From assembly GCA_000004695.1 (NCBI GenBank), contig CM000155.2, positions 2,208,001 through 2,272,000 of the forward strand: DNA of 64,000 nt. The letters are read 5' to 3'. The number at the start of each line of letters is the position of its first letter. The stretch's first letter is position 1. Below, one piece after another: positions 46,360-63,012 of the stretch. Source of the stretch: Dictyostelium discoideum. Taxonomy: Eukaryota. A program made the translations under genes and the position numbers. The notes under the pieces were generated by a model. That model was not told the origin of the DNA. It was given only the letters and a program-made list of their open reading frames with translations, and did not search any database.

Positions 46360-47926
46360 ATGGATTCAAAAAATAAGGGTAGGAATGAAGTAAGCACAAA
46401 TGGTAAAACTTCACCACCTCAATCAACTACTCCAACTACTACCACCACCACCACTACAACAACATCATCATCATCATCCTCAGTGGGAAATAAAAGAAAC
46501 GAAAGTCCAACAATTTCATCCAGTGGAAATCAGTCACCAAAATCAATGGAAAATGATAATGAAAATGAGGAAGATGAAGTTATGGAAGAGGAAGAAGTGG
46601 ATGATAATGAAGAGAATGGTAATGATGAGGATGCACCACACCCATTCTTTGATGATGATCAAGTGGACGACGATGAGGATCTTAACGATCCAACCATTCA
46701 AAATGGTATCAATAGAAAAGATGAAACAGAGGAAGCAAGAAATGAGAGATTAGAATCAATTAGATTGGAAAAAGAGAGATTAAAACAAATTAGAGAACAA
46801 CAACGTAAACAATTACAAGAACTTGAAAAGAATCAAAGACAACAATTACAAGAGGATAAAGAGAAATCTGCAAATGCAAGATTAAAATATTTATTGGAAA
46901 GAACTGAAATCTTTACACATTTCGTTTCAAATAGTAATAATAATAATAATACAAAAAAAACAAAAACAAAATCACCAGTTTTATCATCGTCATCAGCATC
47001 ATCATCAAATAACAATAACAATAACAATAACAATGGTTCAATAGTTTCAAGTACCCCAACAAAAAGAGGTCATATAACAGAAGAAGCGGAAGATGAAGCT
47101 ATTATGAATGAAACAATGGAAGAAGAAGAACCACATTCTTTTAACTTTTTTACATCAAGTCCACCATGTATGTTACACACACAATAATAATTCATACCAT
47201 ATAAATTTTTATTATTAATCTTTTTAAAATTTTTTTTTTTTTTTTAAATTATAGATATTAAGTCAGGTACAATGAGAGATTATCAAGTTTATGGTTTAAA
47301 TTGGCTAATTCAATTATATGAAAGAGGTATTAATGGTATTTTAGCGGATGAAATGGGTTTAGGTAAAACATTACAAACAATTTCACTTTTGGGTTATTTA
47401 TCTGAATATAAAGGTATTAGAGGTCCACATTTAATTATTGCACCAAAATCAACACTTTCAGGTTGGGCAAAAGAATTTACAAGATGGTGTCCATTTTTAC
47501 GTGTCGTTAGATTTCATGGTAGTAAAGAAGAAAGAGTAAATAGTTTAAATTATATAGATATTGTTAAATAATCAATAGAGAGATATATATACTAAATTAC
47601 TTTTATTATTATAAATATTTAAACATAAATATATATAGGAAGATATTAAAAAGAATCAATTAATTTTTAAGAAATTTGATGTTTGTATAACTACATATGA
47701 AGTTGCTATTAGAGAGAAATCAACATTTAAAAAGTTTAGTTGGAGATATATTATTATTGATGAAGCACATCGTATTAAAAATGAAAATTCAGTACTTTCA
47801 AAAGGTGTTAGAATGTTTAATAGTCAATTTAGATTATTAATTACTGGTACTCCATTACAAGTAAGTATAAATATATATATAAATATATTTATAATAAATA
47901 ATTAACTTTTATTATTATTATTATTA

Positions 47927-48020
<94 letters not shown>

Positions 48021-50387
48021 TTATTTATTAAGAATAATTTACATGAATTATGGTCATTATTAAACTTTTTATTACCAGATGTTTTTTCATCATCAGATGA
48101 TTTTGATAAATGGTTTGATTTAGCAAATAATACAGAGAATCAACAAGAGGTTATTGATAAATTACATAAAGTTTTAAGACCATTTTTATTAAGAAGAATT
48201 AAAACTGAAGTAGAGAAATCATTACCACCAAAGAAAGAGATTAAATTATTTGTTGGTTTATCAACGATGCAAAAAGAATGGTATAAAAGATTACTTTCAA
48301 AGGATTTGGATGCAGTTGTTGTTGGAGCAAAAGGTAATACAGGTCGTGTTAGATTATTGAATATTTGTATGCAATTAAGAAAGGCATGTAATCATCCTTA
48401 CCTTTTCGATGGTGCAGAGGAAGAACCATACACAACCGGTGAACATTTAATTGACAATAGTGGAAAGATGGCATTATTGGATAAACTATTGAAAAAGTTG
48501 AAAGAAAGAGGATCAAGAGTTTTAATCTTTTCACAAATGTCGCGTATGTTGGATATTTTGGAGGATTATATGTTGTATCGTGGTTATAAGTATGCAAGAA
48601 TCGATGGTTCTACCGAATCGATCGTTAGAGAGAATTCAATTGAAAATTACAATAAACCAGGTTCAGACTTATTTGCATTCCTTTTAACCACCAGAGCCGG
48701 TGGTCTTGGTATCACTTTGAATACAGCCGATATCGTTATCTTGTTTGATAGTGATTGGAACCCACAAATGGATCTTCAAGCACAAGATCGTGCCCATCGT
48801 ATTGGTCAAACTAAACCAGTGACAGTCTACCGTTTTGTGACAGAGAATTCAATGGAGGAGAAAATGGTAGAGAAAGCAGAAATGAAACTTCAATTGGATG
48901 CATTGGTAATTCAACAAGGTCGTCTCGTTGAGGCAAATAAAAATGCAAAACCTGAAGAACTCTTGGCAATGCTTAGATTTGGTGCTGATGATATCTTTAA
49001 GAGTAAATCATCAACCATCACCGACGAGGATATCGATTCCATTCTCAAGAAAGGTGAAGAGAAAACTGAACAACTCAATAGCAAAGTTAAGGATTTAGCC
49101 TCCAATCCATTGAAATTCCAATCCGATGGTAATCTATACATGTTTGATGGCGTAAACTATAAGAATTCTCATTCCAGTGCAGGCTATTGGGCAGAGACAT
49201 TGAAACGTGAGAGAAAAACAGTCGCAGGTACAGTGGCAGCCGATGAAGAAATCGCTCCTGCAAAACCAGTGGTAAAGAGAGAAAGACGTTTCAATAAACC
49301 AAAGCAGACACCAATCTATGATTTCCAATTCTATCCACCAAGATTAACTCAACTCTATGAGAAAGAGAATGAAGCCTACAATAAAAAGGTGGAATGGTAC
49401 GACCAAAAAGATAAAGGTGAACTTCCAGAGGAAGAGGAGGAACCAGACTTTGGTGATCTATCAAAGGAGGAACAAGATCTCAAAGAAAGATTAATTAAAA
49501 CCGGTGGTTTTGGTGATTGGTCAAAAACTGATTTCCGTACTTTTATTCGTGGTTGTGAATTGTATGGTCGTAAGGCTTATCAAAGTATCGCTGAAGAGGT
49601 TCAAACTAAAACTGAAAAAGAGGTTCAACAATATTCTCAAGCATTTTGGAAAAAACACTCTGAGGTTGCCGATCATGAGAAATTGGTTGCACGTATTGAA
49701 AAGGGTGAAGAGAGAATCATGAAATATAAAGAAACTCAAGACTCTTTAAATTATAAGATCAACAAATATAAAAATCCTTGGATTGAATTAAAGATTCAAT
49801 ATGGTTTGAAAAAGAATAAAAACTATAACGACGAGGAGGATATATTTTTGGTTTGTATGTGCCATCGTTTGGGTTATGGTGCCTTTGAAGAATTGAAAGA
49901 GGAAATTAGAAAATCACCACAATTCCGTTTCGATTGGTTCATTCAAACTCGTACTTGTCAAGAATTGAAAGCTCGTGTCGATCAATTACTAAAATATATA
50001 ATCAAAGAACATCAAGAGGAAGTGGAAGCTGCAAAAGAAGCAGAGAAAAGAAAGAAAGAAAAAGAGAAATTAAAATTGGCAGCCTCTGGTGTCACCGCCT
50101 CTAAAGCAAAGACTGAATCTCCAAATAAAACACTTGGTAAGAGAAAAGATGCTCCACCATCAAAACCTCCTGCTAAACCATCTAAAGCTTCTGCTAAATC
50201 AAAACCTGCTCCAAAATCAAAGACTTCCACAACTACAAAACCTACTACTACAAATGGTAGAGGTAAAAAGAAACCTGTTGAAGAAGAAGAACCAATGGAA
50301 GAGGAAGAGGAAGAAGAAGAAGAGGTTGAAGAGGAAGAGGAAGAAGAAGAAGTTAAAGTTCCACTCAAAAAGAGACAAGTTAAATAA
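46360..50387 (+). CDS. isw: ISWI-type SNF2 chromatin-remodeling ATPase (SNF2_N, helicase C, HAND-SANT-SLIDE); join(46360..47167,47255..47535,47639..47860,48033..50387)
   Basis: It is colinear with human SMARCA5/ISWI: [49 protein letters not shown]; [13 protein letters not shown]…LLITGTPLQ|[18 protein letters not shown]; [12 protein letters not shown]…SGKM; [12 protein letters not shown]; [20 protein letters not shown]; and SANT/SLIDE-like [29 protein letters not shown]. Three introns have GTATGT, GTAAAT and GTAAGT donors. Intron 3 contains a roughly 130-bp (ATT)n tract. Phases are consistent. Total 1221 aa, with an acidic E/K-rich tail. Confidence 0.9.
47905..48030 (+). repeat. (ATT)n about 40 units, intronic (ISWI intron 3)
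   Basis: Direct reading; nearly perfect with two single-base interruptions. Confidence 0.9.
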
Positions 50388-50614: not shown

Positions 50615-50686
50615 GTTTCGATAGCTCAGTGGAAGAGCAAGCGACTGCAAATCGTTAGGTCGCCAGTTCAATCCTGGTTCGGAACT
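50615..50686 (+). tRNA. tRNA-Cys (anticodon GCA)
   Basis: The 72-nt sequence GTTTCGATAGCTCAGTGGAAGAGCAAGCGACTGCAAATCGTTAGGTCGCCAGTTCAATCCTGGTTCGGAACT folds as a cloverleaf. It has a 7-bp acceptor stem (one G-U pair), A-box TAGCTCAGTGG, anticodon loop CTGCAAA with GCA at positions 34-36, and B-box GTTCAATCC. A TTTTT Pol III terminator follows 6 nt downstream. Confidence 0.8.
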
Positions 50687-56408: not shown

Positions 56409-58712
56409 GAAATATAAATAAAAAATTATTTTACTTTTTAATTCAATTAATAACAATTCTAATTGTTTTATCAGATGGTAAATATTTAAATTATATTTTT
56501 AATATTTTATATGATTTTTTTATTAACTATTATTTTTTAAAAAGATTCATATAATAGTTTATTACCACTTGAAAAGGATATAGCAGTTATAATTAGGGAT
56601 TTATCACCACAAACCAATCCAGATTTTGAAATTGATAATCCAAATCGTGTTATAAAAGGGTTAGTTAAGGATCAATTGAATGAAGAAGATCGTAGTCCAA
56701 TTTATTGTTGTGGAGATGATCATGCACCAAATATCGATAGAAATAGATTTGTAATACATAATCAAAGTACATTTTATAGTTGGTTTCATAATCAAAAGGA
56801 TGTTAATATTGTAATTTCCAAATCATTAGTATTCACTAGAAATGTTACATCTGATGATCCAAGAATTTACTCTTATGAAAGTGATAATTTCTTTCCAATT
56901 GATAAGATGGGTTTTGAAGCAGATTCATACAATGGACCAATAAAAAAGAATCAATGGAAGGATAGATGGGGATTTCCAAGAAATTTCCATTTCTGCTTAG
57001 AGTTACATGCTTCATTTTTCTATATTGGTGGTGAATTATTCAGTTTCAAAGGTGATGATGATGTTTGGGTATTCATTGATAATCGTTTGGTATTGGATTT
57101 GGGTGCACCACATGATGTGTCTGGTCAAAATGGTCAAGGATCTGTATATTTGGATAATTTAGGTTTAGAGAAGAGTAAGAGTTACAATTTCGATTTCTTC
57201 TATTGTGAGCGTCATACAACCGATTCTCATATTATGGTTGAGACAAGTATAGATTTCAAATGTAAATACTATGACTATTGTGGTGTTTGTGAAGGTATGG
57301 GTAAATGTTGTAATCCTTCAGAGTGTTATGGTAGTTTGCCTGCATGTGGCCATTTCGAATGTCCAGGTTTAACTGATATCGCTCCAAATGTTGATTGGCG
57401 TTATCATTGTAAAGTTGTAGTTCCAAATTGTTCCCTCTCTGATACATTCTGTGTTAAACATCAATGTGACCCTGATAGTAAACAATGTGTACCATCCACT
57501 GATTATCAACCATGTCAAGGTAAATCCAATAGTTCTTGTATCGAAGCCCGTTGTGATGATAAAATGGGTGGTTGTTACTTAAAGAGTAAACCAAAGGATC
57601 AATCTAAAAATGATACAACTTGTTATCGTGAAACTTGTAATGAAGATACTAGCACTTGGGAGTATAAAGCACTTTGTGAAGATGATTCTGATAAATGTAT
57701 TTCAAAGAAATGTATTCCAAATTCTGGTTGCTCCAGTAGCGTTGTTGATTGTAATGATAACAATCATTGTACCATCGATAGTTGTTCAAAGGATACTGGT
57801 TGCATTCATGACCCAATTGAAAATTGTGTACCATGTGTTGAAGGCAATAAATGTTCAGAATCCAGTGATAAATGTCAACAATTGGAATGTAATCCATACA
57901 ATAGTACAACGGAATGTATTGATCGTACTAAAAAGAATTGTGATGATTCAAATGCTTGTACTATTGATACTTGTAATGGTGAAAGTGGTGAATGTGAAAA
58001 TACTCCAAAACAATGTCTTGCTAAAAATAAATGCTCCACTGCACGTTGTAACTCTAAAACAGGCCAATGTGATAATATCTATCATTGTGATGATGGTATA
58101 CTTTGTACTCTCGATAAATGTTCAGAAAATGGTACTTGCTATTATGAAGCAAATCCATGTGATGATGGTGATCAATGTACAATTGACATTTGTTTGAATA
58201 CTCTAACTGAAACTGGTGGTTGCTCTCACAGTGCTCGTGTTTGTGAACCAAAAAATTCATGTTTTACAAGTCATTGTGATAAAAAGTTGGGTTGTGTTCA
58301 AACTCCAATTGAATGCCCAGTTGAAGCTTTCTGTTTAATTAGTTTCTGTGATAATTCAACAAAGAAATGTATGACCGCTGATAGACCATGTATTCCTGAT
58401 GATCCACGTTGTCAATATGGTGTTTGTGATAACGATACCAAAGCTTGTATTTTTAAAGACTATGATCCATTACCATTTAAATGTCAATCTGCTGCTGTTA
58501 AAGCTGCCGTTGGTGTTGGTGCTGGTGCTGCAGCTGGTATTGCCATTGGTGGTGCAATTGCATTAGGTCTTGCTGCTTTTGGTGGTAAACGTGGTTATGA
58601 TGCTTGGAAATCCTCAAGAGATAATCAAATCCAAACTTCTTCTGAAAATCCATTATATAATCCAAATCCAAATCAAGGTGATAATCCACTTTATGCTGCT
58701 AATAATTCTTGA
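56405..58712 (+). CDS. PA14-domain, Cys-rich-repeat type I membrane glycoprotein (psi / prespore-cell-inducing-factor-like family); join(56405..56477,56545..58712)
   Basis: Exon 1 is a signal peptide, MGNINKKLFYFLIQLITILIVLSD, ending at a G|GTAAAT donor in phase 1. Exon 2 follows AAAAAG|. It has a PA14-like region (…FHFCLELHASFFYIGGELFSFKGDDDVWVFIDNRLVLDLGAPHD…YNFDFFYCERH) and then about 20 Dictyostelium-type Cys repeats (C.IDTC…, …CDDG..CT.D.C). It ends with a Gly/Ala-rich transmembrane helix (AAVGVGAGAAAGIAIGGAIALGLAAFGG) and a short tail, KRGYDAWKSS…NPLYAANNS. Total 746 aa. Confidence 0.75.
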
Positions 58713-59209: not shown

Positions 59210-60332
<1,123 letters not shown>

Positions 60333-60598: not shown

Positions 60599-60809
60599 AT
60601 GACCAAACTCTTAGGATCATTTCTAGAGTATCGTCTATTAAAATTATTCATCAATAATTTTTCCTCTTTCACAGCTAGGATGATGATACACACTCACTAT
60701 ACGAAAGCGTGAAACCGTTATTATCAAATGATTCGTTTATTTGTTATTAACATTGATGACCGTCTAATTCAGGGATGAATTGGTTGTATGGTGGGATTCG
60801 TACTGGCTC
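60599..60809 (+). ncRNA. U3 small nucleolar RNA, copy 1
   Basis: About 211 nt with U3 boxes in canonical order. Box A'/A is CUCUUAGGAUCAUUUCUAGAGUAUCG (human UUUCAGGGAUCAUUUCUAUAGUGUG; yeast CAUAGGAUCAUUUCUAUAGGAAUCG). Box C' is GGAUGAUGAUA. Box B is AAGCGUGAAACCG (human GAGCGUGAAGCCG). Box C is ACAUUGAUGACCGUC (human CCAUUGAUGAUCGUUC). It is followed by a T5 run. The 3' box D is a variant (UACUGG rather than GUCUGA), so the 3' end coordinate is approximate. Confidence 0.7.
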
Positions 60810-61064
60810 TTATTTTTAATTAATTTAAAGAAAAACAAATATGTAGTTATTAATAATTTTTATGCTTTAAATGAAATGTAGTTATTAATAATTTCATAGA
60901 AAGCAAAATAATATATTTAAAAAAAAAAAAATCTATTTTATTAAAAAAAAAAAATCTATTTTATTAAAAAAAAAAAATATCATCTTTTTCTCAATTTTTA
61001 TTTTTATTTTTTTACTTTTTTTAATTTGATTCTTTTTAATTATTAATTAATTTTACACTACAAA

Positions 61065-61866
61065 ATGTCAGAAGGAGATTGTAGGTTTATTTAGTTAATA
61101 AATAAAAAAAAAAAAAAAAAAAAAAAAAAATCAAGTGTTTCTAATTTCATTTTTAAAAGTAGGTTTTGCATCTTTAGGATTAAATGAACAACTAATAAAT
61201 AATATAAAACGATATGGAATTACAAAATTAACACCTTTTCAAATGGAGGTAATAAAAGAAATTAAAGAAAACAGTAATGTTATTGTTGATTCAATTGAGG
61301 GCACAGGTAGGACAATAAGCTTAATTATTGGTACATTAGATAAGATTGATGAAACAAAACAACAACAAGAACAAGAACAACAAGAACGACAACAAACAGA
61401 TCAACAATTTTCATTTCCTCAAATTTTAATGATCTTACCAACAAAAGAGTTATCACAAACAACAAAAGTTATTTATTCATCTTTAGGAGGTGGTGAGAAT
61501 AATAATAATGACTTTAAAGTACTATCATGTATTGGTGGTGTAAAAATATCAATGGATATTGAAATTTTAAAAAAAGGTAATACTCAGATTTTATTAGGTA
61601 CACCAGGAAGAATATCTGACCTATTTTCAAGAAAAAGGTTCGATACAGATAATATTAAAATATTGGTTTTCGATGAACTTGATGAAATCCTTTCAAGAGG
61701 TTTTGAATGTCAATTGGAAGATATTATTAAACCTCTAAATAATAACAATAATTTGCAAATTATTGTTTCAACATCAGGAATTAACGAATTAACTTCAAAT
61801 TTTATAAATACTTTTATAAAGATTCCAAAGATCATTAAATCACAACAAGAACCATATAAATTTTAG
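61065..61866 (+). CDS. truncated eIF4A-like protein: DEAD-box RecA1 domain only, with the catalytic motifs substituted (likely pseudo-helicase); join(61065..61080,61163..61866) with the 5' exon tentative
   Basis: Colinear with eIF4A domain 1: GFASLGLNEQLINNIKRYGITKLTPFQMEVIKEIKENSNVIVDSIEGTGRTISLIIGTL is the Q-motif plus motif I, but GTGRT replaces GSGKT. ILMILPTKELSQ, CIGGVK and LLGTPGRISDLF follow. VFDELDEILSRGF is motif II with DELD replacing DEAD. IIVSTSG has STS replacing SAT. The ORF stops at …IPKIIKSQQEPYKF, the domain 1/2 boundary, with no downstream RecA2 exon. The main ORF lacks an ATG (GTG at 61135). A 16-nt first exon (ATGTCAGAAGGAGATT) joined via GTAGGT…AAAAGTAG in phase 1 would give MSEGDC-FASLGL…. 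Confidence 0.55.
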
Positions 61867-61985: not shown

Positions 61986-62312
61986 TTATTGTTTTGTTTG
62001 GTTAATTTGATTTCGAATATTATTTAATTGATCATTGGTATTTTCCATACTCTTTATTAAAGATCTTGACAATATATCCATGATACGTGCTTTTTTATTT
62101 TCAATTTCTAATAATTCTTTCATAAATTGTGTATATTTTTGAAATTGTCTCTTATTGAAACTCAATTGTTCCTCCAAAATTTCATTCATAGTTACTAATT
62201 GTCTATTTTTATTATTAGCTTGGTTATCTAATAAATTATCTAAATTTAAAATCTTGATGTCGTTGCTATTTAAAAAATATAAAAGATAACTTTTATTTGA
62301 GTCAGATGACAT
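61986..62312 (-). CDS. hypothetical small coiled-coil protein (108 aa)
   Basis: ATG-initiated ORF: MSSDSNKSYLLYFLNSNDIKILNLDNLLDNQANNKNRQLVTMNEILEEQLSFNKRQFQKYTQFMKELLEIENKKARIMDILSRSLIKSMENTNDQLNNIRNQINQTKQ. Composition is not low-complexity and it has heptad periodicity. No recognisable family. Confidence 0.4.
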   Translation of the reverse strand: MSSDSNKSYLLYFLNSNDIKILNLDNLLDNQANNKNRQLVTMNEILEEQLSFNKRQFQKYTQFMKELLEIENKKARIMDILSRSLIKSMENTNDQLNNIRNQINQTKQ

Positions 62313-62801: not shown

Positions 62802-63012
62802 ATGACCAAACTCTTAGGATCATTTCTAGAGTATCGTCTATTAAAATTATTCATCAATAATTTTTCCTCTTTCACAGCTAGGATGATGATACACACTCAC
62901 TATACGAAAGCGTGAAACCGTTATTATCAAATGATTCATTTATTTGTTATTAACATTGATGACCGTCTAATTCAGGGATGAATTGGTTGTATGGTGGGAT
63001 TCGTACTGGCTC
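62802..63012 (+). ncRNA. U3 small nucleolar RNA, copy 2
   Basis: Part of a roughly 295-bp direct repeat (62733-63028) that is about 98% identical to 60527-60822. The same boxes are present as in copy 1, with one substitution (A for G at the position equivalent to 60734). DUSE TCCCATAA lies at 62739-62746. Confidence 0.7.

Follow-up and report, generated by a model that had tools for sequence, protein, structure and literature searches.

A RecA1-only relative of eIF4A beside U3 snoRNA genes in the Dictyostelium discoideum complex as a candidate single-domain pseudohelicase

In the stretch of Dictyostelium discoideum DNA analysed here (64 kb, hereafter the window, whose positions are used throughout), the forward-strand gene at 61065-61866, which we call the 4A-like gene, encodes a relative of the translation initiation factor eIF4A. 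Taking all observations together, we consider that they are probably best explained by a catalytically dead protein of the eIF4A clade that consists of the first RecA domain (RecA1), is kept under relaxed purifying selection for a non-catalytic binding function, and is encoded by a gene that is linked to U3 small nucleolar RNA (snoRNA) genes and has been relocated together with them. The open reading frame (ORF) was known beforehand, being listed in UniProt under accession Q54CH6 with the name 'Putative eukaryotic initiation factor 4A-like protein'. What the present comparison would add is (i) the conservation of the gene under selection across a species complex, (ii) a constraint that, as far as the sequences tell, bears on the fold and on the RNA-face motifs and not on the residues for hydrolysis, and (iii) an apparently persistent linkage to U3, with an apparent relocation of the gene in the company of U3 genes.

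The 4A-like gene is a real spliced protein-coding gene of D. discoideum, with two exons, the first of 16 nt, and a product of 240 aa that shows 100% identity to NCBI KAM9944501.1. The AX4 model (XP_629440.1 / UniProt Q54CH6) has 248 aa and differs from the 240-aa model solely in the choice of the acceptor, which is placed 24 nt upstream so that exon 2 runs from 61136; the N-termini of the orthologues fit the 240-aa model and not this alternative acceptor. For all comparisons between species we used a set of seven orthologous genes (21 pairs), from D. discoideum, D. firmibasis, D. cf. discoideum (two genomes), D. citrinum (two genomes) and D. dimigraforme, which together are the species complex carrying the gene, and the frames of the orthologues were read directly from the DNA and are not artefacts of annotation. 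The short exon 1 with its GT donor is kept in 7/7 of them. The coordinates of the gene, its motifs and its surroundings are collected in Table 1.

In order to place the protein in a family, we combined domain, profile and structure searches. A Pfam scan returned one DEAD domain (PF00270, E=5e-26) and no Helicase_C (PF00271) match. The top solved structures were eIF4A N-terminal domains, both with the single sequence as query (88-90 bits, E=1.6e-24) and with a profile built from two species (E=1e-35). In the comparison with eIF4A, eIF4A3 and DDX proteins, this profile gave 119-126 bits for the eIF4A proteins (those of yeast and human eIF4A-I, -II and -III), all other helicases staying at or below 99.5 bits, which argues for membership of the eIF4A/eIF4A-III clade. 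The AlphaFold2 (AF2) model calculated from a 69-sequence alignment reached a predicted local distance difference test (pLDDT) score of 91.8, the alignment of two sequences having given a pLDDT of 51, which was unusable, and the top Foldseek match of the model was the human eIF4A DEAD domain (2g9n_B) with a template modelling (TM) score of 0.90 and a root-mean-square deviation (rmsd) of 1.9 Å. The fold present in this high-confidence model is one RecA domain, that is, half of a helicase core. The product is thus a complete RecA1 domain from the eIF4A/eIF4A3 clade and nothing more, and an earlier reading of the window, made from the letters alone (the sequence-only reading), which had described an eIF4A paralogue reduced to RecA1, is supported on this point.

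The ORF runs on for about 13 residues past the position that corresponds to eIF4A 'PIRI' and stops in the linker between RecA1 and RecA2, in agreement with the domain boundary at which the sequence-only reading had seen it end. A downstream exon encoding RecA2, spliced to this ORF, would overturn such a description. However, tblastn with an eIF4A RecA2 query gave no match in the 64-kb window, nor in eight dictyostelid loci (about 130 kb of related loci), nor in the locus of Willaertia magna described below; as a positive control, the same query on the bacterial CshA-type gene P0168 gave E=7e-28.

The motifs that remain fall into a preserved and a degenerate group. All the features of eIF4A domain 1 that had been pointed out from the sequence, including GTPGR, LSRGF and the Q-motif, were seen in the alignment, and the protein keeps both the GG motif and LSRGF. 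In the Q-motif, the P-loop Gly, Ia, GG and Ib, DEAD-box proteins have 13 near-invariant positions; 12 of these match the family and do not vary in the seven orthologues, the sole exception being a change of GG to GS in D. dimigraforme. Over the whole alignment of the seven, half of the ungapped columns show no variation. The residues for hydrolysis are treated differently. The Lys to Arg change in Walker A (GTGRT), which the sequence-only reading had reported, is read directly in the sequence and is invariant (R56, 7/7), D177 and E178 vary, and motif III is not kept. In D. citrinum the Asp-Glu of motif II is replaced, by DGLD in one strain and by YRLD in the other, so that, of the substitutions to be sought in orthologues, the Lys to Arg change is found in all seven and the motif II variant is not. 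SAT is missing, as had been claimed; its replacement by STS is not fixed in register, since within the local sequence IIVSTSG HMMER pairs SAT with VST and MAFFT pairs it with TSG.

The third position of the DExD box varies among active helicases, so DELD is not inactivating by itself. The statement that the three substitutions are those which abolish hydrolysis and its coupling to unwinding therefore needs correction for DELD. Judged from its sequence, the protein would be unable to hydrolyse ATP or unwind RNA alone, because RecA2 with motifs IV-VI is missing, the Walker A change is invariant, the Asp-Glu is variable and SAT is absent, and the missing RecA2 and the Lys to Arg change would be the main arguments for catalytic death. 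Lacking RecA2, the Lys of Walker A and the anchor for partners (see below), it would likewise fall outside the active DEAD-box and eIF4A families. A split helicase, in which another gene supplies a RecA2-only protein and the two halves together restore a two-domain protein, could account for an ORF that ends exactly at the linker and for RNA-contact motifs that are preserved, but the searches for RecA2 in the window and the related loci were negative, and even a reconstituted core would not be expected to hydrolyse ATP because of the Walker A change and the variable Asp-Glu; we regard it as highly improbable.

A poly-Q/E tract follows motif I, with another length in each genome, from about 9 to 60 residues. 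Its length differs even between the two D. citrinum strains, and between the two D. cf. discoideum genomes.

The first homologue search returned one orthologue, from D. firmibasis, with 233 aa, about 60% identity, a RecA1-only architecture and the motifs GTGRS and DEVD. In the further searches of the protein collection the score fell from 395 to 122 bits after the two Dictyostelium matches. The loci of the upstream neighbour, the phosducin-like protein 1 gene PhLP1, in related genomes gave five more (two from D. cf. discoideum, two from D. citrinum and one from D. dimigraforme). In 7/7 genes the frame is open over 233-286 aa, the protein is RecA1-only and ends at the same point in the linker, and the Walker A Arg is present. 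The indels among the seven are all in frame and fall mostly in the poly-Q tract. The truncated form with the Lys to Arg change thus predates the radiation of the D. discoideum complex.

To quantify selection, we compared the D. discoideum and D. firmibasis genes, which are identical at 78/86/60% of codon positions 1/2/3, with a dN/dS of 0.27 by the Nei-Gojobori method (NG86); the proportion of synonymous differences (pS) was 0.495 vs 0.192 for nonsynonymous ones (pN; Fisher p=6e-12), and in neutral simulations at the divergence observed between these two species the frame stayed open in 0/20000. Over the 21 pairs the NG86 dN/dS of the 4A-like gene was 0.26-0.52 (about 0.3), and that of PhLP1, which we used as a rate calibrator (93-99% identical across the D. 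discoideum complex), was 0.03-0.08 in the same genomes. The dN of the 4A-like gene was 6-15 times that of PhLP1 and about 7 times for the deep pairs, so that at the amino-acid level the 4A-like gene changes about 7x faster than its neighbour. Because the ratio stays near 7 for deep pairs, the relocated copy of D. firmibasis (see below) is taken as an orthologue. The coding sequence has a GC content of 26%, vs 9.5% in the flanking intergenic DNA. These values show purifying selection that is real but relaxed, acting on a fast-evolving selected gene.

The sequence-only reading had left room for a young pseudogene. A decaying partial duplicate of eIF4A, or a chance ORF, without selection at the protein level would agree with a truncation at the domain boundary, with altered catalytic motifs, and with the word 'putative' in UniProt; but the seven intact frames with one end point, the exclusively in-frame indels, pN well under pS, the coding-like pattern over codon positions, the GC contrast with the flanks and the simulations speak against it, and we regard this alternative as refuted. 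A more serious alternative is a marginal, lineage-specific duplicate heading for loss, weakly selected or recently released and without an important role. The high dN relative to the neighbour, the dN/dS of up to 0.45-0.52 in the closest pairs, the motif II difference between two strains of one species and the changing poly-Q length would all fit it, as would the absence of the gene from the PhLP1-GH47 site in D. firmibasis and D. purpureum and the lack of an orthologue outside the complex in protein searches, which missed some true orthologues. Part of the protein may indeed be drifting, given the relaxed selection and the motif II difference. Such a fate is nevertheless rather unlikely for the gene as a whole: its frame is intact in 7/7 genomes despite AT-rich DNA in which stops arise easily, which the simulations did not reproduce, all indels are in frame, the fold and the RNA-face motifs are preserved with half of the ungapped columns invariant, and dN/dS is clearly below 1 in each pair.

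A dead RecA1 module under relaxed selection, which we favour, has a constant companion in its genomic neighbourhood. Rfam confirmed the two U3 genes between which the sequence-only reading had placed the 4A-like gene (both far above the RF00012 gathering score of 34), and a U3 gene lies 168-531 bp upstream of it, on the same strand, in 7/7 genomes, a linkage that includes the relocated D. firmibasis gene. The second, downstream U3 is present also in D. cf. discoideum (two genomes) and D. firmibasis; none was seen in D. citrinum and D. dimigraforme. The stretch from U3 to the 4A-like gene is colinear between species, with 72.5% identity over 1.4 kb, and the 4A-like gene thus travels with the U3 gene directly upstream. 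The two U3 copies are 1 nt apart within D. discoideum and 1 nt apart within D. firmibasis, and about 10 nt apart between the species, which suggests concerted evolution or gene conversion. In D. discoideum the identity of the copies continues across the promoter, to about 70 bp upstream of the genes; in D. firmibasis only the core of the Dictyostelium upstream sequence element (DUSE) is shared. The same DUSE, TCCCATAA, was seen upstream of all U3 copies in those related loci that were aligned, and an element of this kind about 60 nt upstream has been described for Dictyostelium non-coding RNA genes (PMC7919456).

From the layouts listed in Table 1, U3 and, later, the 4A-like gene look like insertions between PhLP1 and GH47 that are specific to the D. 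discoideum complex. We infer that, in D. firmibasis, U3 copies recombined by homology and so relocated the gene: an exchange between direct U3 repeats would have excised a circle with U3 and the gene and left a solo U3 behind (pop-out), and the circle would then have integrated at another U3 copy (pop-in), yielding U3-gene-U3. In an alignment around the solo U3 of D. firmibasis, no intergenic homology was found beyond U3 and its promoter. A genome comparison has described large inversions between corresponding chromosomes (PMC11193728). A match between the SNF2 gene at the new D. firmibasis site and the window at 46-50 kb was considered as synteny and rejected, because the two are paralogues (47-55% identity); the orthologue of the ISWI-type gene in the window is the one at the D. 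firmibasis PhLP1 locus.

The fixed place beside U3 raises the possibility that the half-helicase serves the U3 small nucleolar ribonucleoprotein (snoRNP) or 18S rRNA maturation as a factor of the small subunit (SSU) processome, like Utp25 and Cms1, which are degenerate proteins of the processome resembling DEAD-box proteins, or like Fal1, a helicase similar to eIF4A, and that the position reflects shared function or regulation. The linkage in all seven genomes, which outlived the change of site in D. firmibasis, would be consistent with this, as would the equal similarity to eIF4A-III and eIF4A-I, the precedent of Utp25 as an accepted SSU processome pseudohelicase (PMC9539457), and weak matches to the Pfam families CMS1 and UTP25 (NTPase-like). 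These matches are below threshold (Cms1, PF14617: 18.5 bits for D. discoideum and 26.9 bits for D. firmibasis, gathering threshold 35; UTP25: 16.7 bits, cut-off 27), and the protein was therefore not assigned to Cms1; with Cms1, a subunit of the U3-containing 90S pre-ribosome, it shares a weak local match around GTPGR and motif II, with no sign of orthology. Since ordinary DEAD-box proteins and the Willaertia and Stomoxys proteins described below match the generic GTPGR region in the same way, membership of either family was rejected as a generic DEAD-box cross-match. Moreover, adjacency in eukaryotes seldom means shared function, U3 copies as recombination substrates explain the linkage equally well, each U3 has its own DUSE promoter, and the gene is confined to one species complex while U3 function is universal. 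On balance we think a U3 or SSU processome role unlikely, and the specific combination of a U3-gene unit moved and duplicated by U3 recombination with a RecA1-only pseudohelicase acting on the U3 snoRNP or early 18S processing quite unlikely.

The purifying selection (dN/dS about 0.3, seven intact orthologues) would imply a retained function, and a regulatory or binding role in general would be plausible. We propose that the protein could act as a non-catalytic binding module, a 'half pseudohelicase', and not as an eIF4G decoy; its binding surface would be the conserved face of RecA1 that is turned to the RNA or to the nucleotide, and it would probably need a partner protein; such a role is suggested by the retention of the fold, the Q-motif, Ia, GG, Ib and the P-loop Gly while the residues for hydrolysis vary.

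A decoy of eIF4F would use the same fold in another way, the RecA1 fragment sequestering eIF4G or PDCD4-like MA3 proteins and damping cap-dependent translation. The protein belongs to the eIF4A clade, PDCD4 MA3 domains touch mainly the eIF4A N-terminal domain, and full-length dominant-negative eIF4A mutants are said to work through eIF4F, all of which would suit a decoy; however, at about 30% identity to eIF4A the partner surfaces are unlikely to be preserved. By isothermal titration calorimetry (ITC), the isolated RecA_N of yeast eIF4A had no detectable eIF4G binding and RecA_C bound with a Kd of 1.3 uM, the anchoring interface for eIF4G being on RecA_C and the weak RecA_N interface relying on R35 and E43 (PMC3064780). 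This goes against the suggestion, made from the letters of the window, that the half-helicase can still bind eIF4G. In a pairwise alignment, the positions that we take to be R35 and E43, assuming the Tif1 N-terminus numbering, are N and T in the Dictyostelium protein. With eIF4G binding absent from RecA_N alone and the contact residues lost, an eIF4G decoy role is unlikely, and the eIF4F decoy as a whole appears very improbable to us. A partner of the PDCD4/MA3 type is conceivable.

Several points weigh against the reading of the gene as a selected, U3-linked binding module. The literature searched holds no paper naming Q54CH6 or IF4AX_DICDI. An isolated DEAD-box RecA1 domain binds RNA poorly alone, so that the proposed binding role needs a partner. 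Motif II is not the same in the two strains of D. citrinum. Since eIF4A and eIF4A-III score alike in the profile search, the two are not told apart as parental gene, and the route of the D. firmibasis relocation is reconstructed from its end states only. Finally, the searches of the protein collection did not return the orthologues from the newly deposited genomes of D. cf. discoideum, D. citrinum and D. dimigraforme, though PhLP1 neighbours of the same assemblies were indexed. No RecA1-only relative was returned from the proteomes of D. purpureum, P. violaceum, T. lacteum, H. album, A. subglobosum and C. fasciculata in these searches, and because the same searches missed true orthologues, the absence outside the complex is soft and rests mainly on the empty syntenic site of D. 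purpureum; given how fast the gene changes, an orthologue in D. purpureum would barely exceed eIF4A itself in similarity.

Among the search results that we set aside, the word-index search with the full protein was swamped by Q/N-rich segments (two matches) and was repeated without the low-complexity segments. The top multi-stretch matches of the profile search (P0004-P0009) were ruled out as orthologues, being duplicated eIF4A domains whose scores add up, and the best non-Dictyostelium match with a named source, P0168, proved to be a frameshifted bacterial CshA-type gene.

Table 1. Positions of the 4A-like gene, its motifs and neighbouring features in the window, and arrangement of the locus in related genomes
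Feature	Position	Strand	Remarks
Exon 1	61065..61080	+	ATG + 13 nt; MSEGD and first base of codon 6; model equals NCBI KAM9944501.1 exactly
Intron	61081..61159	+	79 nt; GTAGGT...TAAAAG
Exon 2	61160..61866	+	RecA1 (DEAD) domain; TAG stop 61864-61866; ends in inter-domain linker
Upstream aromatic F8	61165-61167	+	Invariant, like Q33, in 7 orthologues
Q-motif region GITKLTPFQ (Q33)	61216..61242	+	Aligned to eIF4A GFEKPSAIQ
Motif I / Walker A, degenerate EGTGRT	61297..61314	+	Read from sequence
Lys to Arg codon AGG (R56)	61309-61311	+	Arg invariant in 7 orthologues
Q/E-rich low-complexity insert	61351..61410	+	Loop between motif I helix and motif Ia strand; not in eIF4A; lower pLDDT
Motif Ia PTKELS	61438..61455	+	RNA-backbone contact in DEAD-box proteins; P, T, E, L invariant in 7 orthologues, match family consensus
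Motif Ib GTPGR	61597..61611	+	Invariant in 7 orthologues and in 69-sequence DEAD-box alignment
Motif II, DELD in place of DEAD	61672..61683	+	Orthologues: DELD, DEVD, DGLD, YRLD
Motif III region, VSTS in place of SAT	61765..61776	+	Register ambiguous; orthologues: VSTS, ASTS, ASVS
Upstream U3 snoRNA gene	60599..60807	+	Rfam RF00012, 90.1 bits
Downstream U3 snoRNA gene	62802..63010	+	Rfam RF00012, 90.2 bits
DUSE of upstream U3, TCCCATAA	60536-60543		63 nt before U3 start
DUSE of downstream U3, TCCCATAA	62739-62746		63 nt before U3 start
orf108, convergent 108-aa ORF between U3 genes	61986..62312	-	Annotated gene in GCA_054883475.1
PhLP1 (phosducin-like protein 1, Q71A39), upstream neighbour	59210-60332	+	Exons 59210-59827, 60000-60332
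PA14/Dicty_CTDC gene	56676-58712		Upstream of PhLP1
tRNA gene	50615-50686		Upstream of PhLP1
ISWI-type SNF2 gene	46360-50387		Upstream of PhLP1
D. discoideum layout			PhLP1 - U3 - gene - (orf108) - U3 - GH47
D. cf. discoideum layout (two genomes)			PhLP1 - U3 - gene - U3 - GH47; orf108 homologue in one (ACTFIZ)
D. citrinum layout (two genomes)			PhLP1 - U3 - gene - GH47
D. dimigraforme layout			PhLP1 - U3 - gene - GH47
D. purpureum layout	L007 11008-11184		PhLP1 and GH47 177 bp apart, without U3 and without gene
D. firmibasis original site	L008 9346-9553 (solo U3)		PhLP1 - solo U3 - GH47
D. firmibasis second site			U3 - gene - U3, other chromosome, between HSA-type SNF2 gene and VMP1
D. firmibasis U3 copies	L001 9542-9749, 11284-11491
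Willaertia magna RecA1-only gene	L011 4001-4708 (GCA_041937235.1)		Second near-identical copy elsewhere in genome

Around the U3-gene unit, the convergent orf108 showed a weak KxDL-like Pfam match (E=0.023) and was found only in D. discoideum and in a single genome of D. cf. discoideum (63% identity); it was not seen at this position in D. citrinum, D. dimigraforme and D. firmibasis, including the D. firmibasis cassette, and is outside the conserved unit. A 24-bp tandem duplication (AAAAAAAAAAAATCTATTTTATTA, two copies) lies at about 60918-60975, after the upstream U3 gene and before the start codon of the 4A-like gene. Further upstream, the D. firmibasis PhLP1 locus has the same order of genes as the window, namely the SNF2/ISWI gene, the tRNA, the PA14 gene and PhLP1; in the other PhLP1 loci that were fetched, the PA14 gene alone was seen directly upstream of PhLP1.

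No long-standing open question is touched by these results, and their value is moderate because the ORF was already annotated. Catalytically dead helicase homologues are nevertheless rare, and a selected single-domain derivative of eIF4A would be a compact natural test of what RecA1 can do without ATP hydrolysis or a partner domain, in a genetically tractable host in which knockout, tagging and affinity purification-mass spectrometry (AP-MS) are routine; the protein may thus be a good, tractable candidate for a single-domain pseudohelicase. The U3-gene unit at two chromosomal sites, together with the solo U3, looks like a clean case of dispersed snoRNA copies that serve as substrates of recombination and so relocate a protein-coding gene. 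Should the role in U3 processing hold after all, the SSU processome of this lineage would have gained a non-catalytic component that descends from eIF4A/eIF4A-III.

Compared with known systems, the closest relatives are the N-terminal RecA1 domains of the minimal DEAD-box helicases eIF4A and eIF4A-III (PDB 1QDE, 1QVA, 2G9N, 2HXY), which have the same fold (Foldseek TM 0.87-0.90, rmsd about 2 Å) and give the best sequence matches, with the Q-motif, Ia, GG, Ib, 'SRGF' and the domain boundary in register. The Dictyostelium protein differs from them in being about 30% identical, in having no RecA2 motifs IV-VI, in the Lys to Arg change, in DELD and in the absence of SAT. Relative to eIF4A it also carries the poly-Q insert after motif I, does not conserve the residues of the secondary eIF4G interface, is confined to one species complex and evolves about 7x faster than a neighbouring housekeeping-type gene. 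Binding to MIF4G/HEAT partners such as eIF4G and CWC22 in the eIF4A family is anchored on RecA2, and this anchor is absent from the Dictyostelium protein. ATPase-dead or separated eIF4A reportedly interferes with initiation or is removed from it, the examples being the dominant-negative eIF4A mutants attributed to Pause and colleagues (1994) and the cleavage of eIF4AI by the foot-and-mouth disease virus (FMDV) 3C protease, but the dominant-negative mutants are complete eIF4A proteins, which work through the anchoring of RecA2 on eIF4G that is lacking here.

A similar architecture occurs in Willaertia magna, whose proteins KAL9649299.1 and KAL9657223.1 (235 aa) are stand-alone, intronless, RecA1-only and eIF4A-like, end with '...DPIRIIL' at the same boundary, and are 37% identical to the Dictyostelium protein vs 31% for human eIF4A1. 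They have DQLD as motif II and have lost SAT, but keep the Walker A Lys (GTGKT), and no Helicase_C coding sequence was found within 4 kb of the gene. As Willaertia belongs to Heterolobosea, an unrelated lineage, these proteins are probably an independent truncation. We also noted that a protein of Stomoxys calcitrans (P0005, A0A1I8Q043, 1675 aa) contains at least six tandem, degenerate eIF4A-III-like DEAD (RecA1) domains without Helicase_C, from a locus with several isoforms in NCBI. If the reading as a U3-linked pseudohelicase held, the independent RecA1-only derivatives of Willaertia and the tandem RecA1 arrays of Stomoxys would point to a recurrent, unrecognised class of 'half-helicases'.

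The nearest functional precedent is Utp25/Def, a pseudohelicase of the SSU processome that arose by duplication and divergence and has been retained although its vestigial catalytic motifs are dispensable (PMC9539457), and which sets the notion of a helicase homologue without catalysis; in 2022 it was only the second pseudohelicase to be proposed (PMC9539457). Utp25 and the Dictyostelium protein are alike in being derived from DEAD-box proteins and in being retained with degenerate catalytic motifs, whereas Utp25 has both RecA-like domains, occurs across eukaryotes and is essential, and the Dictyostelium protein has one domain and is lineage-restricted. With Arg in Walker A, no motifs IV-VI, a variable Asp-Glu and no SAT, its catalytic motifs would be non-functional, which is one of the marks of a pseudohelicase.

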